DNA of 38,856 bases from Myxococcales bacterium (GCA_033578775.1 JAVQWY010000014.1:64001-102856); one strand, 5' to 3'. Numbered from the stretch's first letter, positions 19,439-32,652 are shown. The notes: generated by a model not told the origin, from the sequence alone. Translations and numbers: made by a program.

Positions 19439-19477
19439 GAGCCCTGCGTGCATAGAGGGCGCGTTGGCGCATCCAGG

Positions 19478-20605
19478 ATGCATCCACTATACTGCCAGAC
19501 GAAGACCGTGCGTCCTTATGCCCGTCGGAAAACCACGCCGCAGCTCGTTGTAGTCGCGGCGCTCCTGGCGCTGCTGGTACACGGGCTTGTGCTGCTCCTG
19601 CTGGTGGGCAGCGGGGCCCTGCAGACGCTGCCGCTTGGACGCACCGTGGTGGCCGAGCGCACCGAGGGGTTGCTGCGCTTGGACGAGCCACCCATCGAGA
19701 TCGAGTGGCTGGTGGATCAGCTGGACCGGCCCCAGCAGGAAACCCCTGAGGAGCAGCGCCGCCGACAGGAGGAGGAAACCACGCGCCCCGAGGGACAGGT
19801 GGTGGACATCGCCCGCCCGGCCCTGGAGCAGCGTCCCGACCAGGCGCGCTTTCTGGCCGAGTACGACTCGACGGTCGAGCGGGAGACGCGAGGACCCCCA
19901 GGGCGGTCCCAGGCCGGCGCCCTCCAGCCCGCTGCCCGGCCCACCCCTCCGCCCCGCCCAGCTCGTCCTGGCCGCGCTGGCCCCCCCGGGCCGCTGGCGC
20001 TCCGGTCGGCCTCGTCGCCCCCCGCGGCTGAGAGCAGCCAGGACCTGGCCCCCGATGGCACGGCCCGGTGGCAGCCCGGCGGCCCCCATCGGACGCCCTC
20101 CCAGCCCGGCGGTGGGCAACCCGCCGCCCCTGCCACGCCCAACTTGTTGGCCACCCCCGAGCTCCTGGAGCGGGTCCTGGGCCAGGGAGCCGGCTCGCCC
20201 GACTACCTGAAGGACATCGACGACGGCGAGTACACCGCCCTAAACGCCAAGCGGTGGAAGTTCGCCTCGTTTTTCAACCGGCTCAAGCAGGCCGTGGCGG
20301 ACGAGTGGCACCCGGACACCGTCTACCTGCGCCATGATCCGTCGGGCAACATCTACGGCATCAAAGATCGCATCACGGTGCTGCGCGTGCACCTGAAGCC
20401 CGACGGCCGCATCGCCGCCATCCAGATCCTGCGCCCTTCGGGCGTCGAGTTTCTCGACGATGAGGCCGTGGGTGCCTTCAAGCGTGCCCAGCCCTTCCCC
20501 AACCCCCCCCAGCAGCTGGTCGAGCCCGACGGGTTGATCCGGTTCAATTTTGCCTTCATCTTTGAGTTGTCGGGTCGGACCTCATTCAAGGTGTTTCGCT
20601 ACTGA
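19478..20605 (+). CDS. TonB-family energy transducer
   Basis: N-terminal TM (LVVVAALLALLVHGLVLLLLVG), Pro-rich spacer, and C-terminal TonB domain (YGIKDRITVLRVHLKPDGRIAAIQILRPSGVEFLDDEAVGAFKRAQPFPNPP). The ORF tool's upstream GTG at 19448 is also possible. Confidence 0.65.
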   Translation: MHPLYCQTKTVRPYARRKTTPQLVVVAALLALLVHGLVLLLLVGSGALQTLPLGRTVVAERTEGLLRLDEPPIEIEWLVDQLDRPQQETPEEQRRRQEEETTRPEGQVVDIARPALEQRPDQARFLAEYDSTVERETRGPPGRSQAGALQPAARPTPPPRPARPGRAGPPGPLALRSASSPPAAESSQDLAPDGTARWQPGGPHRTPSQPGGGQPAAPATPNLLATPELLERVLGQGAGSPDYLKDIDDGEYTALNAKRWKFASFFNRLKQAVADEWHPDTVYLRHDPSGNIYGIKDRITVLRVHLKPDGRIAAIQILRPSGVEFLDDEAVGAFKRAQPFPNPPQQLVEPDGLIRFNFAFIFELSGRTSFKVFRY

Positions 20606-20690
20606 GGCCTCCCAGCGCGGCAACCGCGTCCTCGTAGCGCTCGACTGCCAGGACCATTCAAGGTGTTTCGCTACTGAGGCCTCCCAGCGC
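20583..20690. repeat. perfect 36-bp direct repeat x2 separated by a 36-bp unique segment, covering the stops of two convergent genes
   Basis: cattcaaggtgtttcgctactgaggcctcccagcgc at 20583-20618 and at 20655-20690. Confidence 0.9.
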
Positions 20691-22034
20691 CCCGCGCAGG
20701 CTGTAGAGATCGTCCAGATACTGTAGGATCAGCTCCCGCACCGCGCCTCGGTCGGGCAGACGGGCCATGAGCCCATAGGCTGCAGCCTGGCCTTGGCCCG
20801 ACCGCTCCGGGTGGGCGCGCACTTCCTCCACGGCGGCGCGCAGGTCGGCCAGGTAGGCCTGCTCCACCCCCTGGTGGGCCGGCGTGATCATGAGGTGGAT
20901 GGCACTCGGGTGCTGCTGCCGGTCTACGTGCCAGCCGCGCGCCGCCAGCGCATCGGCCACGGCCAGGATGTCCACCTCGTCGGAGGTGAAGGCAAAGACG
21001 CTCATGTCCGGCTGGCCCAGCACCCGCAGCCCGGGGATGGCCGCGATGCCCTCCAGAAAGGCGCGGCTGGTGCGCATGATCTGCTCGGCACGGCGCAGGT
21101 AGCCCTGGCGCCCCGTGGACATCAGGGCGGCCCAGGCAGCGGCAATGGCCCCACCGGGACGCGTGCCGGCCAGGGTCGGCGAGCCAAAGAGACCGCCCGG
21201 CCAGTCGCTGGTGACGAAGAACTGGTACCGACGCAGCGCCCGGTTGCGGTAGAGCACCACCGAGGCCCCCTTGGCTGCAAAGCCGTACTTGTGTAGGTCG
21301 GCCGACAGCGATGTGACCCCGGGGACGCTCAGGTCAAAGGGCGGCACCGGATGGCCCAGCTCCCGCACAAACGGCAGCAGAAACCCCCCCAGGCAAGCAT
21401 CCACGTGCATGCCCAGCCCCCGCTCCTGGGCCAGCGCCGCCAGGGCCGGGATGGGATCGATCACCCCATGCGGATAGGCGGGAGCCGAGCCGACAAGCAG
21501 GATGGTCCGTGGTGTGATCGCCGCACGGACGGCATCCACATCCACGCGCAGGTCCGGCCCCAGGGGCACGTGCACGGCCCGCACCCCTAGGTAGTGGGCG
21601 GCCTTGTCGAAGGCCGGATGGGCGGAGACGGGCAGCACCATCTCTGGCTCCACCAGATCTGGACGCTGCGCACGCGCCCAGTCGCGGTAGGTCTTTACGG
21701 CGAGCAGGATGCTCTCTGTCCCGCCCGAGGACATCGTGCCGCAGGCCTCGGGTCCTCCGCCCAGCAGGCTGGCAGCCATGGCCACCACCTCGTTCTCCAT
21801 GCGCAGCAGGCTGCGGAAGGCGGTGGGGTTTAGGGCATTTTCGTCGAAGAACAGGCAGTAGGCCTGTTGCAGCAGGGCCCTGTGCTCGTCGCCGGCGTGG
21901 TAGACGAGGCTGAAGGTGCGGCCCTGGCGCCAGCGGGCGTCCTCGCTGCGGAGCGACTCCATCTGGCGTAGCACCTCCTGGTGTGGCAGGCCCTGCTCAG
22001 GCAGGTGAGAGCGAGGCGGGGGTAGCTCAGACAT
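20658..22034 (-). CDS. PLP-dependent group II decarboxylase-fold enzyme, sphingosine-1-phosphate lyase family
   Basis: LNPTAFRSLLRMENEVVAMAASLLGG, SGGTESILLAVKTYRDWA and SLSADLHKYGFAAKGASVVLYRN, where HK is the PLP lysine, closely parallel the SPL motifs. Start is at MSELPPP; the 176-aa N-terminal ORF extension was rejected. Confidence 0.8.
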   Translation of the reverse strand: MSELPPPRSHLPEQGLPHQEVLRQMESLRSEDARWRQGRTFSLVYHAGDEHRALLQQAYCLFFDENALNPTAFRSLLRMENEVVAMAASLLGGGPEACGTMSSGGTESILLAVKTYRDWARAQRPDLVEPEMVLPVSAHPAFDKAAHYLGVRAVHVPLGPDLRVDVDAVRAAITPRTILLVGSAPAYPHGVIDPIPALAALAQERGLGMHVDACLGGFLLPFVRELGHPVPPFDLSVPGVTSLSADLHKYGFAAKGASVVLYRNRALRRYQFFVTSDWPGGLFGSPTLAGTRPGGAIAAAWAALMSTGRQGYLRRAEQIMRTSRAFLEGIAAIPGLRVLGQPDMSVFAFTSDEVDILAVADALAARGWHVDRQQHPSAIHLMITPAHQGVEQAYLADLRAAVEEVRAHPERSGQGQAAAYGLMARLPDRGAVRELILQYLDDLYSLRGALGGLSSETP

Positions 22035-22312
22035 GCTCTGCAAGCTACACGAAACCGGGCCCCAAGGGCAGCCGTAGGCCGCAACTTCCCCCTGCAGCCC
22101 CTTGGACCTGCAGGCTGGCTTGGGCGTTGCGCCATCGCCTCGTGCGTGCGCTGCTCCGCCCCCGGTCCTGTCCGCGCTGCTGCGTCTTTGGCCCCTGGTG
22201 GTCGGCGGTCGCCGTCGGGGTCGGCTGCAGGGGACGCTCCTGGCGCCTGGCCTCCGGGCGTGTCTTGCACCCGCTCGAGGCACCTCCAGCGCCCTCGGCA
22301 GGGCGGTGGGCG

Positions 22313-23893
22313 TCAGAAGCGGAACTGCACCGCCAGGCGCGCCTCGCGCTCCAACGTGGTGGGGGCGTGCAGGTCGGTGCCGAGGCGGCGCTCCATGAAG
22401 AAGGCGGTCACGGTGCCGATGCTGCGATAAAAGTACAGGTGCACCGCGGCGCGCCACTGCAGCTCGTCCAGCTGGCGCTGCATCTCTGAGCTTAGCATGG
22501 CCGGCGGGTGGTCGAACCCCGAGGCGACGAACTGGCCCACGTCCATGCCCAGCATGAGCCACTTGGACACCGCCAGCACACCGACCTGGATGTTGTAGGC
22601 CAGCCCCCAGGAGCCGAACTCAATCTCGCGCTTGCCATAGGTTTCGGCCTGGATGAGCAGGCGCCGGTAGCGCAGCACGGCGAACAGGTTGGCTGCGGGG
22701 AAGCGCTCCAGCGGCCGCTGCTCCCACTTGACGCCCAGGGCTAGGGCCACGGCCAGCGGCACCGGCGTGTACAGCAGCGGGCTGTCCCATCGGCTGAAGA
22801 AGCCAACCACGTTCCAGTGGATCTGAGCGGCCACCTGGTAGGCGAAGTTGCTGTTGTCCTCGGTCAGGAAGGTGCCGCCGACGTTGCCGGTAAAGCGCCC
22901 GGTGCCGGCCGAGGCCAGGGCACGGTACAGCAGGCGCCCGCCCCGGTCGATGGGCCCGCCAAACTCCACAGCCACGCTGTAGGGCTGCTGGAAGGCGTTG
23001 ACCAGATAGAAGGGCGGGTCGAGCAGAAGCTGCTTGTAGATCGAGATGGCCAAGATGGACGACAGGCCGCCGGTGCCGCTGCTGACGTTGGCGTAGTGGC
23101 CGCGCTTGCCCAGCGGCACCTGAAACATGGCAAAGGTCAGCCGCGGCGTGCGCTCGGCGCGCACGTTGAGCAGGAAGAACGAGTTGCGGATAAACGGGAT
23201 GGGGCCGAGCACGCGCAGCTGCAGGCGCGAAAAGCGGGCGTCGAAGGTGTTGTCCTGCGCCTGGTAGGCGACCTCGGTGCGTGCCACCACGGAGAAGGAG
23301 AAGTTGGGCTGCCCCTGGCAGACGGAGATGGAGGGGTCGAAGCGGCAGCCAAAGTCCTGGCAGTCGGTGCGGCCGTCGCCGTCGTTGTCGATGCCATCGG
23401 CGCACAGCTCGTCGCTGCGTTCGCCGTCCTTGTCGTTGCCGCGGCCGATGAGATCTTCTACGGACATGCCTGGGCCCAGCTCGGGCACCGGCTCCGACGC
23501 CATGGGCTGCCCCGTGCCCTGAGCGCCGCCGGTTGCCAGCGTGGCCTGGGTGCGCTGATAGGAGCCCTGGCACACAGAGATACCGGGCACCTGACAGTCC
23601 GGGTCATCGCAGTCCATCTGGCCGTCGCCATCGTTGTCGATCCAGTCGCTGCATAGGGAATTGGTGGACTCGGGCCGCCCGTCGGGACGGCAGTGGGGCG
23701 AGTCGGCGCAGTCGGCATCGCCGCAGTCATAGACAGTATCGCCATCGTTGTCGATGCCATCGTTGCACTCGGTCTCGCGCGCCGGCTCGGCCGCAGCGAC
23801 AGGTCTGGCCGGGCACAGCAGCACCGCCAGCAGCGCAGACAAGACGACCATGTCCCCTCGGGCCGTGGGTCGCATCGGTCGCATGGCTCGCAT
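22313..23893 (-). CDS. outer-membrane beta-barrel protein with N-terminal Cys-flanked DxDxDG repeats
   Basis: Signal peptide. Four copies of C.DGIDNDGDG..DC.D.DC. The C-terminal ~350 aa have beta-barrel texture and end in the Phe-terminal AVQFRF. Confidence 0.6.
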   Translation of the reverse strand: MRAMRPMRPTARGDMVVLSALLAVLLCPARPVAAAEPARETECNDGIDNDGDTVYDCGDADCADSPHCRPDGRPESTNSLCSDWIDNDGDGQMDCDDPDCQVPGISVCQGSYQRTQATLATGGAQGTGQPMASEPVPELGPGMSVEDLIGRGNDKDGERSDELCADGIDNDGDGRTDCQDFGCRFDPSISVCQGQPNFSFSVVARTEVAYQAQDNTFDARFSRLQLRVLGPIPFIRNSFFLLNVRAERTPRLTFAMFQVPLGKRGHYANVSSGTGGLSSILAISIYKQLLLDPPFYLVNAFQQPYSVAVEFGGPIDRGGRLLYRALASAGTGRFTGNVGGTFLTEDNSNFAYQVAAQIHWNVVGFFSRWDSPLLYTPVPLAVALALGVKWEQRPLERFPAANLFAVLRYRRLLIQAETYGKREIEFGSWGLAYNIQVGVLAVSKWLMLGMDVGQFVASGFDHPPAMLSSEMQRQLDELQWRAAVHLYFYRSIGTVTAFFMERRLGTDLHAPTTLEREARLAVQFRF

Positions 23894-23899
23894 CCTTGG

Positions 23900-25123
23900 C
23901 TACTCACATACGCGACGGCCTGGGCACACCGTCACCAGCGGGTTGTGGCTGCAATCCCAGTCGCGGCAATCTATGAACCCGTCCAGGTCGTTGTCGAGCC
24001 CGTCGGAGCAGCGGGCATTGGCGGCGGCCGCATCGGGGCCGAGGCTCTCTTGGCAGGCCTGGCGCACATCGATGGTGGCGGCCTGGCTGCAGGCCCGGTC
24101 CTCGCAGTCGATGTAGCCGTTGCCATCGTTGTCGAGGCCGTCGGTACAGCGAGCGAAGGTATTCTCCAGGCGGGCAGCGCAGTAGGCCATCAGGTCGGGG
24201 TCGCCTGAGCGCGAGCAGGAAAAGTCGGCGCAGTCGGTGTAGCCGTTGCGGTCGTTGTCCACCCCATCGCTGCAGCGCGCCAGCGTGTTTTCCAGCCGCT
24301 CGGCGCAGTAGGCACGCACGGCCGCGTCAGGGGAGGTGGCGCAGGCGCGGTCGGCGCAGTCGGTGTAGCCGTTGCGGTCGTTGTCCACCCCATCGCTGCA
24401 GCGCGCCAGCGTGTTTTCTGGCAACAGGTCAGCGCACAGGGCCTGGATGGCCGGGTCGGCCGAGCGGGCGCAGTCGAAGTCGCGGCAGTCGGTGTAGCCG
24501 TCGCCGTCGTTGTCGAGGCCGTCGGCGCAGCGCTCGGGGGTGTTTTCTGGCATGCGGCAGCGCTCCAGGCGCACGCAGTCGGGGTCGCGGCAGTCGATGT
24601 GGCCGTCGCCGTCGTTGTCCAGTCCGTCGCTGCAGCGGGCGTCGGTAAGTTCAGTGCAGACGGTGACAAAGGGGCTCTGGCGGCAGCCGAAGTCGCGGCA
24701 GTCGGTGTAGCCGTTGCGGTCGTTGTCCACCCCATCGCTGCAGCGCGCATCGGTATTTTCGATGATGCAGCAGGTCTCGGGGATGGCGCGGCAGCTGGCC
24801 TCGCCGCAGTCCCAGTTGCCATCGCCGTCGTTGTCCACCTGGTCGGTGCAGGTGGCGTAGGTGGCCTCGCGACGGGGGGGTTCAGGGATGGGGGGAACCA
24901 TCTCGCCGCAGAAGGTGGAGGTGAAGCGGCAGTCGGGGTCGCGGCAGTCGACCTGGCCATCGGCGTCGTTGTCGAGGCCGTCGCTGCAGTTTTGATCCTC
25001 GGTCTCGTAGCCCAGCACCGGATAGGGCGGGCGCTCAAAGCAGCCCAGCGCCAGCAGGGCGGCAGCAGGCAGTACGGCCACCAGGCGGCCGGGACGCGGC
25101 GAATCGTCAGATGGGCGGCGCAT
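23900..25123 (-). CDS. lipoprotein composed of ~9 tandem ~41-aa Cys-flanked DxDxDG (Ca-binding-loop-like) repeats
   Basis: Lipobox LLALGC. Repeats of ENT[LF]ARCSDGVDNDRNGYTDCAD..C....P.....YCA. The underlying DNA repeats are near-identical. Confidence 0.65.
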   Translation of the reverse strand: MRRPSDDSPRPGRLVAVLPAAALLALGCFERPPYPVLGYETEDQNCSDGLDNDADGQVDCRDPDCRFTSTFCGEMVPPIPEPPRREATYATCTDQVDNDGDGNWDCGEASCRAIPETCCIIENTDARCSDGVDNDRNGYTDCRDFGCRQSPFVTVCTELTDARCSDGLDNDGDGHIDCRDPDCVRLERCRMPENTPERCADGLDNDGDGYTDCRDFDCARSADPAIQALCADLLPENTLARCSDGVDNDRNGYTDCADRACATSPDAAVRAYCAERLENTLARCSDGVDNDRNGYTDCADFSCSRSGDPDLMAYCAARLENTFARCTDGLDNDGNGYIDCEDRACSQAATIDVRQACQESLGPDAAAANARCSDGLDNDLDGFIDCRDWDCSHNPLVTVCPGRRVCE

Positions 25124-25160
25124 GTACCCTCGCTTTCTTCCCCTTACCTCTCACTTGATC

Positions 25161-26105
25161 TCACTTGATGAGGCAGGCGGCTCGCAACGGACCATACCGC
25201 CGCTGGAACGGCACATGGTACATGCAGGAGGTCTCCTGGCCGGGGTCGCTGCCCAGGGCGCCTGCATCCCTGTAGCGCTCCAGCAGCTGCCGCAGCGGTT
25301 CGCGCAGCGCCTGGCGCACAGGGCGGCCCAGGACGCGGTAGCGCACGTACATGTGGATGGCCGCGCGCAGCTCCTCCACGGAGGCCTGGCGGACCTCGGG
25401 ACTGGCCGCTGGGTCGGCGCGCAGGCGCTCCAGCAGGCGCGCCTCGGTCTCTGGATTGCTCGGGTACTGGCGGTGGCAGATGCGCGTGCACTCGGCATAT
25501 TGCTCGTGGTGCACCCAGGGCACGGAGTGGCCGTCTGCGGTGGAGACGAGGCGGTTGAAGGTACCGCGGCCCTCGGTGTCCTCCTCGCGGGAGTGGAGCG
25601 AGGTGAGCAAGAAGGGCGGCACGCCATGGGCCCACAGGCCACGCCGGGCCTGCATCGCCTCGCGCTGAGCGCGCAGCAGCACGGGATCGCCGGGCTCGTC
25701 GGTGACGCTGAGGACATGGGCGAGGCCGCTGCGCACTTGGGTCTCGGCCAGATCCGGGCACCACAGCAGCGTCCGACCATAGCCGTCGGGGCGGTCTTGG
25801 ATGGTACAGTGCCACACGCCGCGCCGCGCCTGGAGCGTGGCCATCTTGGCCAGCACGTACAACTCCTCTGGCGTCCAGCTTCCCCACTGGTGCACCGGGC
25901 CGTGGGCCTCCAGCGCGTTGAACCCGGCCAGGCGGGTGCGCATCCCGCGGTGGGGCCCGTCCAGCACGCGGAAGCTGTCGCCGTCGTTGAACAGCACCGG
26001 GGTGGGCTGGCCATTGATGAACACCAGGCTGGCTGCCGGATCGGCCCCTGCCGGCGCGGACGCCGCAAGCAGGACCACGAGCAGCGCGGAGCGGGATGGC
26101 AACAA
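25161..26105 (-). CDS. secreted thermonuclease (staphylococcal-nuclease-like, SNase fold) with C-terminal extension
   Basis: Signal peptide. FNDGDSFRVLDGPHRGMRTRLAGFNALE, GLAHV and RRGLWA motifs of the SNase family. TTG start. Confidence 0.7.
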   Translation of the reverse strand: MLPSRSALLVVLLAASAPAGADPAASLVFINGQPTPVLFNDGDSFRVLDGPHRGMRTRLAGFNALEAHGPVHQWGSWTPEELYVLAKMATLQARRGVWHCTIQDRPDGYGRTLLWCPDLAETQVRSGLAHVLSVTDEPGDPVLLRAQREAMQARRGLWAHGVPPFLLTSLHSREEDTEGRGTFNRLVSTADGHSVPWVHHEQYAECTRICHRQYPSNPETEARLLERLRADPAASPEVRQASVEELRAAIHMYVRYRVLGRPVRQALREPLRQLLERYRDAGALGSDPGQETSCMYHVPFQRRYGPLRAACLIK

Positions 26106-26442
26106 CGCGGGGACGATAGTCCCTGGCGAGGCGCTTGTAAAGCAGGATGCGCGCGCCCATTGGCCATCGGGAGGGGTGGGGCCGGCAGGAGCGCTGCTGG
26201 CCGGCTGGAGCGCCGGGGCTCAGGCCCGGGGAGTGGTCAGGGGCGAGCCACCGGACGACGACGTGGGACCGGGTGGGCCGAGGGGAGACCGGAACGCCCG
26301 GGCCCTCATCCGCTCAGCACCACCCGGCACCAGAGCGGGGCTGGCGCGGGGCTGCTAGCGGCATGCTGGATTATCCAGTATCTTATAAAACCCTTGTCCG
26401 AATCAGGCACATCGTCGCGGCCAACATCCAGCAGGAGGACCC

Positions 26443-28078: not shown

Positions 28079-28567
28079 TCATTTGCGGAGCGCAACCAGG
28101 TGGAAGTTGGGGTAGCCCGCCATGGCAGCGGTCTTCATGACCTTGGCCAGCAGCTCGTAGGGGATGTCCTTGTCGGCCATGAGCAGGATCGTGCTGTCGT
28201 CGTGGTTGCGGCTCATGCCCCGTTCGCTGCGGCTGGCTCGGGCGGCGGTGAGCCGATTGTACAGGGGGACGATCTGGTCTCCCTGGACTTCCACATCGAA
28301 CCGGCCGCCCTCGATGTGGGCAATGGGCGATCGCTCGATGGCCAGTTCGGTCTTGGACAGGCTGACAACGATGCTCTCTCTCAGGTTGAAGCCGAGGCGA
28401 CTTTCGGGCAGCGTCAGGTGGGTGCGCCCCTCCAGCGCCAGGTGCTGCGAGGCGAAGATGGTCAGCAAGAAGAACAGCAGGTTGGTCAGGATGTCGATGA
28501 GGGCCACCAGGTTCAGCTGGGGCACCTCGTCGGGGGTGGCGTTTGCGCTGTCGCCGCTGGACATCAT
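28079..28567 (-). CDS. ExbD/TolR-family biopolymer transport protein
   Basis: LNLVALIDILTNLLFFLL TM followed by the periplasmic ExbD domain. Confidence 0.85.
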   Translation of the reverse strand: MMSSGDSANATPDEVPQLNLVALIDILTNLLFFLLTIFASQHLALEGRTHLTLPESRLGFNLRESIVVSLSKTELAIERSPIAHIEGGRFDVEVQGDQIVPLYNRLTAARASRSERGMSRNHDDSTILLMADKDIPYELLAKVMKTAAMAGYPNFHLVALRK

Positions 28568-28573
28568 GGTGCC

Positions 28574-29125
28574 TCAGCGAACCAGGTCGGAGATGACGAC
28601 CTTGGTGAACAGGTTGCTGGTGCGCGCCGTGCCCCCCGTGCCGCGGGCGGCGTCCATGGTTCGGATGATCACCTCGTAGGGGACCTCGTTGTCCGGCAAG
28701 AGGATCACCGTGTCTGATGCAGGGTAGCGGTCCTTGATGGCGGCCAGACGGCGGGTCAGCTCCTCGTAGGGCAGGTCCCAGGGTGGCGCGCCAGCCTCGG
28801 TGCGGCGGGGCAGCTCAAAGCGCAGCGCGGCGGTCTGCTCACGGCTGAGGCGCTCATTGGCAGCACTGCCTAGGATGCCGCGCCTGGTGATCTGCAGCGT
28901 GACCAGGACCTGGCTTGGCGGCGGCTCCTGCCCACCGGCCGACTCGGAGCGGGTCGGTACCGACGCCGGCAGCAGCGCCACCACCGCCGCCCCGACAGAG
29001 GCCAGCAGGAAAAACAAGATGTTGCTCATCACGTCCATCAGCGGCGTCAGGTTCAGGTCCACACCACCGACCTCGGCCTCTGTGCCGAAGAGGGAACGGC
29101 GCGAGCCGAAGACCGAGCCCTGCAT
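28574..29125 (-). CDS. ExbD/TolR-family biopolymer transport protein (second copy)
   Basis: LNLTPLMDVMSNILFFLLASVG. The start ATG overlaps the ExbB stop (ATGA). The ORF tool's N-terminal extension was rejected. Confidence 0.8.
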   Translation of the reverse strand: MQGSVFGSRRSLFGTEAEVGGVDLNLTPLMDVMSNILFFLLASVGAAVVALLPASVPTRSESAGGQEPPPSQVLVTLQITRRGILGSAANERLSREQTAALRFELPRRTEAGAPPWDLPYEELTRRLAAIKDRYPASDTVILLPDNEVPYEVIIRTMDAARGTGGTARTSNLFTKVVISDLVR

Positions 29126-29770
29126 CAGGCGGTGGCTCCGCGGCGCTGGGCCCCGGTCCGCTGCGAGGCCAGGTGGTCGACCAAGCGGGTGGTCGCCTGC
29201 TCCATGGCGGTGAGGATCCGGGACTGCCGGCCAGAAATGATCATATACGCAAACACCGTGCCCACGGCGACAGCGAGGCCGAAGAAGGTGTTGTAGAAGG
29301 CGATGGCGATGCCCTTGGCGAGCATCGCCTGCCGCGCGGCCGTGCTCTCGGTGTTGCCGATGCCTTGGAAGGAGACGATGAGGCCGTGGATGGTGCCCAG
29401 CAGGCCGCACAGGGTGGCCAGGTTGGCCAGGTGGGGCAGGTAGGCCGTGAGCGCCCGGATGGTGGGCAGCTCCACCGCTGCCTGCGCCTCGACAGCACGG
29501 CGGATGTCCTTCTCGCTGCGGTCGGCTCGCACCAGCGCCGACTTAAGGATGCGCATCAGCGGGTGGCGGTTCATGCTACAGAGCTGGAGCGCCTGGGGGT
29601 AGCTGCCGGACTCGCTCAGGTCCAGGACCTGCTTGAGGTACGCCGGGCCGGGGAGGCGGTACTTGACCCAGAGCGTGTAGAGACGCTGCAGAATGATCGC
29701 AACGGCGCCAATGGAGATGCCCAGGGTGGCGAACATGAAGGGTCCACCCGCTAGCAGAAGGTCGAACATC
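29125..29770 (-). CDS. MotA/TolQ/ExbB proton-channel protein
   Basis: Three TM segments. CGLLGTIHGLIVSFQGIGNTESTAARQAMLAKGIAIAFYNTFFGLAVAV. AGGAG RBS. The ORF tool's extension to 30042 was rejected. Confidence 0.85.
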
Positions 29771-29933
29771 GGTGCTCCTTGTGCGTGCTGGCCCATCATA
29801 CTGGCCAGGGGCCGTAAGGTCCAGGCCACCAACCGGCGGGTGGCGCTTGGGCCGGGACGAGGGTCTGCGCCCTTTGCCCACATAGGGGCGAGCTGGACCC
29901 ATGGGGGGGCGGGGCGGCGGGAAGGGCTTGCGC

Positions 29934-30156
29934 ATCCAGGCCCCAGAAGAGTGCAGGGGCTGACGCAAAGGAGCGAATGCAGGCTTGAGTAGCGATAAAC
30001 CGGGTGAATCCAGGCCCCAGAAGAGTGCAGGGGCTGACGCAAGGGAACCTGGGCCTGGCGGAGGAGACTAGGGCTTGCGCAGGAACTTAGCTCCCGTGGC
30101 CTGTCTCCCGGAGTAACAGGGACCTGGGCCTGGCGGAGGAGACTAGGGCTTGCGCA
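29934..30156. repeat. two adjacent repeat-spacer-repeat structures (35-bp perfect repeats A and B, each x2, spacers 39-40 bp)
   Basis: Repeat A (atccaggccccagaagagtgcaggggctgacgcaa) lies at 29934-29968 and 30008-30042. Repeat B (acctgggcctggcggaggagactagggcttgcgca) lies at 30047-30081 and 30122-30156. B copy 2 contains the sterol methyltransferase stop codon. Confidence 0.9.
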
Positions 30157-31168
30157 CCAGAAAGTAGAACATCGGCGTGAAGATGCCGGTTCGCCCCCCC
30201 TCGACGAGGTAGCCCGCCCCGCGCTGCAGGAACGAGCTGACCGCGGTGGCGCCCTTGGGTGCCACGCCCACGGCCTCCAGGCTGCGGACCATCTGGTGGG
30301 TCAGCCATCGGCCCACGGGGCTGGAGCGGAACCCGCTGGGGGTGTACCAGGGGGCTGCCAGGGGCAGGTACCAGGGCGTCTCCGGGTCGGCGGTCAAGGC
30401 CCGGTCCTCGCTTTCCAGCACCTCGAAGCCGACCGCGCGCAGCGCTTCCAGCACCTCCGGCACCGTCGCCAGCTCGGGCAGCGCGTTGCCTTCCTCGATG
30501 CCCTGCCGGATCTCCCGATGGCGGGGGTTTTGCGAGTCGTACCGGTCGGTCACGCACCACTCGTAGGCGGCAAAGTGCGCGCCCGGCTTGAGCACGCGGA
30601 AAACCTCGCCGTAGATTTGCCGCTTGTCCGGCGCGTGGCAGGTGGCCTCGATGGCATAGGCGGCATCGAAGGTGCCATCTGGCACCGGAACGGACAGAAA
30701 GTCGCACTTGAGGAGCTCGCACAGGTGGCTCAGGCGGGCCGCCTCGTTGTGTTTGCGGGCCCGTGCGATCTGGTAGTCGTTGTTGTTCAGGCCGACGATG
30801 GTGGCGCCGCTAAAGCGGGCAATGGAGCGCATCGGCCCCCCCACCCCGCAGCCGAAATCGGCCACCCTCATGCCCGGCCGCAAGCCCAGGCGCAGCGCCA
30901 AAAAGTGCTCGTAGCGCGCGATGGAAGCAGCAAATGCCTCGCCGCGGAAGCGCGGCGCAAAGTGAAAGGACTGTCCCCAGCCGAACTCATAGAAATCCGT
31001 GACAAGATCGTAAAAGTTGTTGACCAGCGTCGCATAGGACTGTTTGCGACGTTCCGTGCTGCCGCCCCGGGAACGGTCATACTGGGCGGTGTAGTTGTCC
31101 ACGGTGGCCTGAACCTCGTCCCGGGCGAGGGATGTCTGACAGATGTCGGTGACCGATGGTGCGTCCAT
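30143..31168 (-). CDS. sterol 24-C-methyltransferase (ERG6/SMT1 family, SAM-dependent)
   Basis: Near-colinear match to ERG6 hallmark blocks: YEFGWGQSFHFAPRFRGEAFAASIARYEHFLA, FGCGVGGP, VGLNNNDYQIARA, YAIEATCHAP, VLKPGAHFAAYEWCVTDRYDSQNPRHREI, GGRTGIFTPMFYFLVRKP. Start at MDAPSV; the upstream ORF extension was rejected. Confidence 0.85.
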   Translation of the reverse strand: MDAPSVTDICQTSLARDEVQATVDNYTAQYDRSRGGSTERRKQSYATLVNNFYDLVTDFYEFGWGQSFHFAPRFRGEAFAASIARYEHFLALRLGLRPGMRVADFGCGVGGPMRSIARFSGATIVGLNNNDYQIARARKHNEAARLSHLCELLKCDFLSVPVPDGTFDAAYAIEATCHAPDKRQIYGEVFRVLKPGAHFAAYEWCVTDRYDSQNPRHREIRQGIEEGNALPELATVPEVLEALRAVGFEVLESEDRALTADPETPWYLPLAAPWYTPSGFRSSPVGRWLTHQMVRSLEAVGVAPKGATAVSSFLQRGAGYLVEGGRTGIFTPMFYFLVRKP

Positions 31169-31314
31169 GGCTGAGCCCTGTTGCTGTGTGCTGGTAGGAA
31201 ACCCGGAACCCGCGCGGGTGTCAATGTGCGATTCCGCACGGGCGGGAACCTGTTGACCCCAGCCCGCGCTGGAGGCAGCATGAGGCAATTTGTTTGATCC
31301 TGCCGGAGCATGCC

Positions 31315-32652
31315 ATGAGCGGAGAGCCTGAGCAGCCTGTTCCTGTCCCTGTCTATGACGTTTGCGTTGTCGGTGCCGGCCCGAGCGGTGCCACGTGTGC
31401 ATACTATCTGGCGCAGCGCGGCAAGCGGGTTTTGTTGCTGGAGAAAAAGACCTTTCCGCGCGACAAGCTGTGCGGCGATGCCGTCTGCACCAACGCCCAG
31501 ATCCACCTGGACCGCATGGGCGTGCTTCGGGAGCTAGAGGAGGAGGGCACCGGTCACTGGGCTGCAGTGGGGGGCCTGGTCAGCCCGCGGCGCATCGGGT
31601 TCATTGGCAACTCGGCCAAGCAAAATGGCCGCCCGCTGGTGATGGCCGTCAAGCGCATGATCCTCGACGAGAAGATTGCGCGCGCGGCGCAGCGGGCCGG
31701 GGCCCTTCTGGTGGAAAACACCACCGTGACCGGTGCCTCTCTCTCGCGGGCCGAAGGGGTGTGGACGGTCCAGGCAACCCGCAACGGGGCGGCCGTGTCC
31801 TACCGGGCGCGGGCGCTGGTGGCGGCAGATGGGGCGCTGTCGCGGCTCACCCAGGCCCTTGGCATCCCGACGCCGCCGCCAGACAGCGTGTGCAGCCGGG
31901 CCTACATCAAGGCCGGCACGCATCAGTTCGACATGGACGGCGTGGTCTTTTATGAGCTGGACATGGTGCCCGGCTACTGCGCCCTGTTCCGCGAGGCTGG
32001 CGGCGACGTCAACTACTGCGTCTATATCATCCCGGGCGGGCGCTGCTCCATTGACGATCTTTACGAGATGCACCACCGCATCCTCCGCGACAACCCGTAT
32101 GTGCGTCGGGCGGTCGGTCCCCACGCGGTCATCGACAAGATGAAGGGGGCACCGCTGCGCCTGGGTGGCATCCGCAAAAGCTACCACGACCACCTGCTCA
32201 TTGTCGGCGATGCGGCCGGACACATTGACCCGCTCACCGGCGAGGGCATCCATCATGCCATGGACGGTGGGTACCTGGCCGCCGAGGTGCTGTGCGAGGC
32301 CCTGGCAGTCGGCGACCTCAGCGAGCGGTTCCTGCGCCGCTATCAGGACCGCTGGATGCGCGCCTTTGGCCGCGATTTCTTCTGGTCCAAGAAGATGGCC
32401 CAGGTCTTTGCGAAGGCGCCGATTCTGGTCGATGCCAGCGCCGCGGTCATGCAGCGCAAGGGCGCGGACTCGCTGCTGGAATGGGGCCGTGTCATGACCG
32501 GCGTGGCCCCCAAGCGCTACTTTCTGCGGCCGGAGGTGGCGCTGCCCCTTCTTGTGGAGACGGGACGCCAGGTCGTCCGGCAAGCCTTGGGGAAGATCGT
32601 TCCAGATGTCAGGGTCTCTCTCGATGGAGTGGTTCGGCCCTGGATGCCCTAG
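31315..32652 (+). CDS. geranylgeranyl-reductase-family FAD-dependent oxidoreductase
   Basis: YDVCVVGAGPSGATCAYYLAQRGKRVLLLEKK is the Rossmann GxGxxG. LCGDAV. LIVGDAAGHIDPLTGEGIHHAM is GGR/ChlP-like. Alternative start at 31294. Confidence 0.8.
   Translation: MSGEPEQPVPVPVYDVCVVGAGPSGATCAYYLAQRGKRVLLLEKKTFPRDKLCGDAVCTNAQIHLDRMGVLRELEEEGTGHWAAVGGLVSPRRIGFIGNSAKQNGRPLVMAVKRMILDEKIARAAQRAGALLVENTTVTGASLSRAEGVWTVQATRNGAAVSYRARALVAADGALSRLTQALGIPTPPPDSVCSRAYIKAGTHQFDMDGVVFYELDMVPGYCALFREAGGDVNYCVYIIPGGRCSIDDLYEMHHRILRDNPYVRRAVGPHAVIDKMKGAPLRLGGIRKSYHDHLLIVGDAAGHIDPLTGEGIHHAMDGGYLAAEVLCEALAVGDLSERFLRRYQDRWMRAFGRDFFWSKKMAQVFAKAPILVDASAAVMQRKGADSLLEWGRVMTGVAPKRYFLRPEVALPLLVETGRQVVRQALGKIVPDVRVSLDGVVRPWMP

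Follow-up and report, generated by a model that had tools for sequence, protein, structure and literature searches.

Background

In Sus-like loci, an enzyme for degradation is encoded together with a lipoprotein and an outer-membrane (OM) channel. [quoted passage not shown] The logic of enzyme, lipoprotein and OM channel shared by these systems recurs in a triad of genes at positions 22,313 to 26,105 of a 38,856-nucleotide stretch of DNA from a Myxococcales bacterium (GCA_033578775.1, JAVQWY010000014.1:64001-102856; this whole stretch is referred to as the window). The triad encodes a secreted staphylococcal nuclease (SNase)-type nuclease (gene 1), a predicted lipoprotein made of tandem cysteine-rich modules (gene 2) and a predicted porin that carries the same modules at its N-terminus (gene 3). 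It shows no homology with Xds, Dns or Sus components, however, and its channel is a passive porin instead of a TonB-dependent transporter.

The modules have a structurally characterized relative in the teneurins, which are eukaryotic adhesion receptors. The C-rich domain of teneurin-4 has been solved at 1.5 Å (PDB 7PLP; Meijer et al. 2022, PMC9058538) and holds three fully coordinated Ca2+ ions, with E835, D840, D843, N844, D845, D847, D851, D854 and D856 as ligands. Sites I and II of this domain are thrombospondin type 3 (TSP3)-like, site III is like that of LDLR-A modules, and the disulfides link cysteines 1-3, 2-5 and 4-6; the domain as a whole was reported to resemble no known fold (PMC9058538). 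Its Ca2+ ions are structural and not an exchangeable store, and the domain participates in a Ca2+-stabilized protein-protein contact in the teneurin-4 dimer (PMC9058538). With respect to the channel, porins with N-terminal periplasmic extensions are known (DcaP and OmpM1), but an N-terminal domain of Ca2+-binding modules, as present in the gene 3 product, is not known from characterized porins.

Results and discussion

Conservation of the gene triad

The three genes follow each other on the minus strand, with intergenic distances of 37 bp (nuclease/lipoprotein) and 6 bp (lipoprotein/porin), as had been noted in a first-pass annotation of the window made from the sequence alone. That annotation had also proposed that the genes are functionally linked, and synteny bears this out. 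Indeed, the order nuclease, repeat lipoprotein, porin was found in 20 of the 21 loci with enough flanking sequence, all of them in Myxococcota-type genomes. These comprised all nine genome loci, all ten metagenome loci and a divergent lineage with 48% GC (L100), the genes being on one strand each time. The metagenome scan was targeted at divergent barrels lacking repeats and returned mainstream family members, which were used for synteny. In two loci (L001 and L002), the orthologous triad genes overlap. Cultured carriers include Haliangium, Enhygromyxa salina and Paraliomyxa miuraensis. The genes flanking the triad differ from locus to locus, and because the synteny is maintained amid such unrelated neighbours, the triad is a real, functionally linked module. 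A conserved fourth gene was not found among these loci, a pyruvate kinase gene adjoining the triad only here and in L003, where riboflavin genes are also near. As the flanks are not conserved and the gene for a pyridoxal phosphate (PLP)-dependent decarboxylase next to the porin gene is unlinked elsewhere, the module consists of these three genes.

Two loci belong to a divergent lineage of low GC content (L099 and L100) and have DUF4399 and ComF-like (DZR_2 plus Pribosyltran) divergent neighbours in common. In L100 (2302-6362), the triad is kept, the nuclease is shortened and an extra lipoprotein of 351 amino acids (aa) is encoded upstream, whereas the barrel protein of L099 (7001-8278) has kept the barrel-proximal module alone.

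The secreted nuclease

The product of gene 1 (313 aa in the NCBI call versus the 314 aa given in Table 1) matched the Pfam family SNase (PF00565) with an E-value of 3e-5 and 24.9 bits, the gathering cut-off being 21, and its AlphaFold 2 (AF2) model had a predicted local distance difference test (pLDDT) score of 93. With this match and this model, the protein can be assigned confidently to the OB-type SNase fold, as claimed in the first-pass annotation. Its homologues number 433, are approximately 320 aa long and are labelled 'thermonuclease family protein'. When the single sequence was searched against PDB, no match was obtained, a profile being required.

Eight residues were invariant in 91 nuclease homologues, namely D41, G42, D43, R58, N63, E66, Y109 and R111. 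These are taken to correspond to SNase D19-G20-D21 (D41-G42-D43), R35, D40 and E43 (R58, N63 and E66, with the spacing R-x4-D/N-x2-E kept) and Y85/R87 (Y109/R111). The register of R58/N63/E66 is set by the Pfam match, in which residues 58-159 align with positions 3-106 of the hidden Markov model (HMM), while hhalign and the PDB profile put Y109/R111 on Y85/R87. The hhalign comparison of the nuclease family with SNase covers the alignment from residue 65 on only, and the DGD triplet was assigned from the motif itself, from its invariance and from the order of strands in the model. An alternative register of the N-terminal half, obtained by a naive BLOSUM62 pairwise alignment with SNase, was rejected, because it leaves the active site unconserved, ignores the invariance of FNDGDSFR, R58, N63 and E66, and conflicts with the Pfam coordinates.

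Judged by these residue matches, the gene 1 product is predicted to be a Ca2+-dependent staphylococcal-type nuclease with an intact catalytic Arg/Glu/Arg set. It shares with SNase the fold and, in the register adopted here, the equivalents of Arg35, Glu43, Arg87, Tyr85 and Asp21. It differs from SNase in having Asn for Asp40, in missing the omega loop (residues 44-52) and in possessing three conserved disulfide pairs. Furthermore, it carries a C-terminal domain of approximately 150 aa for which no structural match was found, and the helical insert of this domain (approximately residues 218-285) is missing in one divergent orthologue. For export, the nuclease carries a Sec signal alone; no recognizable secretion or anchoring domain was present.

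The acidic double-disulfide repeat and the lipoprotein

The modules of the gene 2 and gene 3 products follow the pattern C-x-D-G-[ILV]-D-N-D-x-[DN]-G-x-x-D-C-x-D-x-x-C-x(5-11)-C, each containing four cysteines spaced C-x13-C-x4-C-x5-11-C. Counted by this pattern, the lipoprotein contains nine modules and the porin three; the array described in the first-pass annotation is thus real, but comprises 12 copies instead of about 13. In addition, the repeat, left there without a confident family placement, proved to be a named one. The NCBIfam entry NF033662, "acidic double-disulfide repeat", with a curated cut-off of 41 bits, matched nine stretches of the lipoprotein (E = 4.9e-87, 285.3 bits) and three stretches of the porin (E = 3.6e-30, 103.4 bits), so that both proteins are members of this family and the repeats exceed chance by far. 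The library entry consists of a name alone, without a function or structure attached, and a literature search returned no paper under the name acidic double-disulfide repeat.

The lipoprotein contains 39 Cys and 65 Asp, and no Lys. Its N-terminus (MRRPSDDSPRPGRLVAVLPAAALLALG-C28), as read off the sequence, reads as a signal peptide that leads into a lipobox-like Cys, the segment ...AAALLALG-C28 coming near the canonical L-[AS]-[GA]-C without being identical to it. At least 12 of the 19 repeat-lipoprotein orthologues, and also L100, have a hydrophobic stretch that ends in Cys. Between 6 and 15 modules are present per orthologue, a spread suggesting that the lipoprotein has grown and shrunk repeatedly. 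Two tandem DNA arrays lie beneath the modules of the gene itself (Table 1), with 71-73% identity. Unlike the variable lipoprotein, the porin orthologues have almost always kept three modules.

Beyond the triad, NF033662 repeats were encountered in a scan of genome collections that was seeded on the repeat patterns and returned mostly unrelated repeat proteins. They form tandem arrays of 5 to approximately 29 copies in big secreted or surface proteins, often joined to beta-helix or other domains (L011, L012, L015, L017, L021, L023, L024, L033, L064 and L068). The hosts are Desulfobacterota, Bradymonadaceae, Saprospiraceae, Verrucomicrobia, a metagenome-assembled genome of Bacillota, Acidobacteriota, Peribacteria, which belong to the candidate phyla radiation (CPR), and Woesearchaeota or other archaea. 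As large secreted proteins from many phyla of bacteria, from the CPR and from archaea contain such arrays, the NF033662 repeat is, to judge from its distribution, a generic extracytoplasmic module.

Relationship of the repeat to the teneurin C-rich domain

When all PDB sequences were searched, teneurins were the sole matches of the modules with E < 0.05. The 49-residue C-rich domain of teneurin-4 (7plp_A) was matched by the single sequence of the lipoprotein (phmmer, E = 6.4e-4), by a profile of the 12 modules (E = 5.4e-6) and by the profile of the porin family (E = 6.5e-7). The bacterial and teneurin sequences have the core C-x-D-x-x-D-N-D-x-D-G-x-x-D-C-x-D-x-D-C in common. In the alignment of the 12 modules, the equivalents of the Ca2+ ligands D840, D843, N844, D845, D851 and D854 are invariant or conserved to at least 90%. 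The equivalent of D847 is D or N, with T in one of the 12 modules, and that of D856 varies. A conserved Glu precedes the first Cys of the modules, at position -3 in module 1 of the porin and at position -6 in most other modules. The module cysteines match teneurin cysteines 1, 2, 3 and 5, and therefore disulfides C1-C3 and C2-C4 are predicted, the teneurin 4-6 pair being missing here. In teneurin, a eukaryotic adhesion receptor, the C-rich domain occurs as one copy with six Cys, of which a 4-6 pair forms a third disulfide, whereas the bacterial modules, with four Cys each, form tandem arrays of three and nine in envelope proteins. On sequence grounds, the NF033662 repeat is a clear homologue of the metazoan teneurin C-rich Ca2+-binding domain, a connection that is not made in the literature searched. 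By this homology with a domain holding three Ca2+ ions, and given the conserved ligand positions, the modules plausibly bind two to three Ca2+ ions each, in line with the Ca2+-binding role that the first-pass annotation had read from their DxDxDG-type core.

The description of the repeat as TSP3-like or MopE-like holds in one respect, as the teneurin homologue possesses TSP3-like sites, but not as family membership. The TSP_3 (PF02412), dockerin and LDLR-A models of Pfam gave no match with the full repeat proteins (E <= 1) or with a two-unit fragment (E <= 10). Similarly, Cu-binding_MopE (PF11617) gave no match with the full proteins, and with the two-unit fragment it reached 13.8 bits (E = 0.073), the cut-off being 27. 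EF-hand models were sub-threshold on that fragment (EF-hand_7, E = 0.58; EF-hand_6, E = 7.5). In the AF2 model of the porin, the modules are disulfide-knotted, with short helical turns only and without the helix-loop-helix of an EF-hand. Membership of the TSP_3, MopE and EF-hand families was rejected, the Pfam scores being absent or sub-threshold. TSP3 repeats (including those of bacterial OmpA-like proteins), MopE and EF-hands share an acidic Ca2+ loop of the DxDxDG type with the modules, but their cysteine framework is unlike that of the modules.

The porin

The gene 3 product possesses a cleavable signal peptide and ends in ...AVQFRF, with a C-terminal Phe. Its AF2 model, based on 120 sequences, had a pLDDT of 85, and DSSP assigned 16 strands within residues 199-525. 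A short helix is part of a long internal loop (residues 272-306), which is highly conserved and resembles the L3 constriction loop of classical porins. Foldseek retrieved OmpU, chitoporin, OmpC/F and OprP/O with the barrel at E-values of 1e-10 to 1e-7. At the sequence level, no Pfam domain or porin family (Porin_1, Porin_4, Porin_O_P and others) was found in the window porin or in 25 homologues, and a PDB profile search with the porin family found no porin. The integral OM protein that had been proposed for gene 3 is thus upheld by model and fold search, and specified further: according to the model, the barrel is a classical 16-stranded porin by fold, which probably forms a trimer. Its fold is shared with the classical porins OprP/OprO, OmpU, OmpF/C and Omp32, to which it has no sequence-level relation. 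A phosphate specificity of the OprP type was considered but not adopted, because Foldseek ranks general porins equally high. Among the barrel residues conserved to at least 90%, 18 are basic (12 R, 4 K and 2 H) versus 10 acidic (7 E and 3 D). The family is compact and isolated; at 50% identity, no more than 60 of its clusters occur among 1.84 billion representatives. Its members are approximately 50% identical across Haliangium, Nannocystis, Sandaracinus and Polyangiaceae-type genomes, and all are annotated as 'hypothetical'.

The three modules of the N-terminal domain start at C43, C81 and C164. Residues 111-132 of the domain form a disordered linker, and module 3 is preceded by a conserved DxDGERxD segment. 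The modules were modelled with pLDDT values of 80-92, and all their Cys and Asp are invariant in 120 homologues. By analogy with the N-terminal extensions of DcaP and OmpM1, they are more likely located in the periplasm.

At the tip of the L3-like loop, the window porin departs from its family. Residues 299-308 (22970-22999) read NAFQQPYSVA, whereas the near-invariant family consensus is NAFEQGNGAA. This divergence could alter the properties of the channel.

Proposed function of the triad

The triad may constitute a Ca2+-dependent station for nucleic-acid degradation and uptake at the outer membrane, a reading that is preferred here but only tentatively, as it falls somewhat short of an even chance. 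It builds on the linkage and conservation of the three genes, the folds of their products, the conserved catalytic and Ca2+-ligand residues, and the export signals. First, all three products bear Sec export signals and conserved disulfide cysteines. Secondly, the gene 2 product would act as an OM lipoprotein, presenting a string of nine two-disulfide modules loaded with two to three Ca2+ ions each. Thirdly, the Ca2+-loaded modules of porin and lipoprotein may associate in the manner of the teneurin domain within its dimer to form a rigid Ca2+-dependent scaffold at the porin. Fourthly, the nuclease, held at or near this scaffold, would cut environmental or prey DNA or RNA. Lastly, small anionic products, such as nucleotides, short oligonucleotides and phosphate, may pass through the porin, whose lumen would be rich in conserved basic residues. 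For this scheme we infer co-transcription of the genes, actual Ca2+ binding by the modules, activity of the nuclease, contacts among the modules and between nuclease and scaffold, the side of the membrane on which the scaffold lies, the selectivity of the porin and the nutritional role. A bolder extension envisages a nucleic-acid utilization complex throughout the phylum Myxococcota, in which a Ca2+ docking of the cohesin-dockerin kind would couple the nuclease to a dedicated anion-selective porin and lead the digestion products of prey or environmental DNA and RNA directly inside, the acidic double-disulfide repeat being ancestral to the teneurin C-rich domain; this must be considered doubtful.

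Several points weigh against the uptake station, of which topology and regulation are the weak sides. In the default topology, with the N-terminal porin domain, the lipoprotein and the nuclease all in the periplasm, long DNA could not reach the nuclease via the porin. Upstream of 19 orthologous nuclease genes, no regulatory 8-mer rose above shuffled controls, and no phosphate-, nucleotide- or nucleoside-related gene is conserved beside the triad. In the nuclease itself, the position of SNase Asp40, a Ca2+ ligand, is occupied by the invariant Asn63 across the family. The barrel gene of L099 lacks an adjacent nuclease or repeat lipoprotein gene. Finally, literature searches on the repeat, on myxobacterial thermonucleases with OM lipoproteins, and on TSP-type porins of Myxococcus yielded nothing relevant.

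Alternatively, the triad may serve the periplasm. The modules would then form a Ca2+-dependent scaffold, either stabilizing or tethering the outer membrane or storing Ca2+, beside a major general porin and a housekeeping nuclease. The lipoprotein would reside in the inner leaflet, and the nuclease would destroy DNA entering the periplasm in the manner of endonuclease I. The strong conservation of the family (approximately 50% identity across orders) at a single locus, the housekeeping neighbours (a pyruvate kinase gene both in the window and in L003, plus the riboflavin genes of L003) and a nuclease with merely a Sec signal are in accordance with such a role. Still, such a role would give no reason for the invariable linkage, as first gene, of a nuclease whose active site is intact, and no peptidoglycan-binding or other tethering domain was detected in the triad proteins with Pfam and NCBIfam. 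This alternative is somewhat doubtful.

Myxobacteria expose some of their lipoproteins on the cell surface, and the occurrence of the repeat arrays in many large secreted or surface proteins of several phyla fits an extracytoplasmic spacer. Combined with the intact active site of the nuclease, these points would be in line with a Ca2+-loaded scaffold on the surface, essentially as in the first-pass annotation. Presented by this scaffold of lipoprotein and barrel repeats, an extracellular nuclease would degrade eDNA, remodel biofilms or assist predation, and the barrel would serve mainly as a membrane anchor. The barrel, however, is modelled as a full porin with a conserved constriction loop, and hence as more than an anchor; the N-terminal modules of the porin would need to cross the membrane; and no surface-export component is encoded. 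Such a display must be deemed unlikely.

The density of predicted Ca2+ sites, with 65 Asp and no Lys in the lipoprotein and three Ca2+ ions per teneurin domain, brings to mind Ca2+ uptake or buffering, in which the porin would admit Ca2+, approximately 12 modules (up to about 36 sites) would buffer the periplasm and the nuclease would be a client. The Ca2+ ions of the teneurin domain are fully coordinated, structural and not exchangeable, however (PMC9058538). In addition, the conserved barrel residues are mainly basic and a cation channel is therefore disfavoured. Ca2+ buffering is quite improbable. Fortuitous adjacency or an anti-phage defence locus, for which nothing more than the presence of a nuclease speaks, is hardly credible; the synteny kept in 20 of 21 loci amid unrelated flanks effectively refutes it, and the defence reading was rejected as PADLOC gave no match for any of the three triad proteins.

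Taken singly, the parts of the triad are of known kinds, namely an SNase, a porin and a repeat that has a name and a eukaryotic homologue of solved structure, but the combination is new. Indeed, the literature searched did not describe any porin whose N-terminus bears an array of Ca2+ modules and which is accompanied by a matching lipoprotein and, in obligatory linkage, a nuclease. If the uptake station is real, the triad would provide predatory or saprophytic Myxococcota with a dedicated outer-membrane pathway by which to harvest nucleic acids, built from parts not seen together before, and its porins would be the first family with an N-terminal domain of Ca2+ modules. The analysis offers a structural and functional annotation for hundreds of 'hypothetical' proteins without a Pfam domain. 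Moreover, it ties NF033662, a repeat from many secreted proteins of bacteria and archaea, to a solved Ca2+-binding structure, and this link suggests that the teneurin C-rich domain arose in prokaryotes.

Gene layout and genomic surroundings

The coordinates of the triad, its domains and flanking features are given in Table 1.

Table 1. Features of the nuclease-lipoprotein-porin triad and its flanks, in window coordinates
Feature	Position	Strand	Basis
Gene 1, secreted SNase-type nuclease, 314 aa, TTG start	25161..26105	-	Open reading frame (ORF) and Pfam SNase
Nuclease signal peptide (~aa 1-21), SNase domain (~aa 25-165) and extra C-terminal domain (aa 166-314)			
SNase catalytic domain	25611..26033	-	Residue match to SNase and Pfam
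Nuclease C-terminal domain: beta subdomain, conserved Cys206/210/294/311, helical insert ~aa 218-285	25164..25610	-	
Gene 2, predicted repeat lipoprotein, 407 aa	23900..25123	-	ORF, NF033662 and composition
Tandem DNA arrays beneath the lipoprotein modules, periods 126 and 108 bp	24103..24851	.	Tandem Repeats Finder
Gene 3, predicted OM porin with N-terminal triple Ca-module domain, 526 aa, C-terminus ...QFRF	22313..23893	-	ORF and AF2 model
Porin N-terminal domain, three acidic double-disulfide modules	23315..23788	-	NF033662 and teneurin profile match
Predicted 16-stranded beta-barrel, aa 199-526	22316..23299	-	AF2 model and DSSP
Promoter-like site TTTACA-17-TATCGT, just upstream of the nuclease start	26113..26141	-	Consensus scan
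TonB-like flanking gene	19448-20605	+	
ExbB-ExbD-ExbD flanking genes	28079-28567, 28574-29410, 29125-30042	-	

The GC content of the window is 62-73%. Two of the proteins are 100% identical with proteins from a metagenome-assembled genome annotated as a Myxococcales or Myxococcota bacterium. A Shine-Dalgarno-like purine-rich stretch directly precedes the ATG of gene 2 and that of gene 3. The nuclease gene and the pyruvate kinase gene are separated by a divergent region of 337 bp, which holds the promoter-like site; the consensus scan upstream of the nuclease gave two sites versus 0.3 expected, which constitutes weak evidence.

On the other side of the triad, the longest ORF of the PLP-dependent decarboxylase (20658-22562, minus strand) overlaps the porin gene by 250 bp. 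Translation of this gene probably begins at position 22034 (ATG; MSELPPP...), in which case approximately 279 bp after the porin stop are untranslated. Within 2-4 kb, the triad is flanked by the TonB-like gene and the ExbB-ExbD-ExbD cluster. ExbB-like genes also occur at most approximately 3 kb upstream of the nuclease gene in two further loci (L007, 1422-2084; L013, 2157-2789), but with three of approximately 21 loci this proximity is too infrequent for linkage. Further along the window, a sterol-methyltransferase-like gene (30143-31402, minus strand; Sterol_MT_C, E = 1.2e-24) adjoins a gene for a monooxygenase-like protein dependent on flavin adenine dinucleotide (31294-32652, plus strand), a pair that hints at sterol modification in this myxobacterium.

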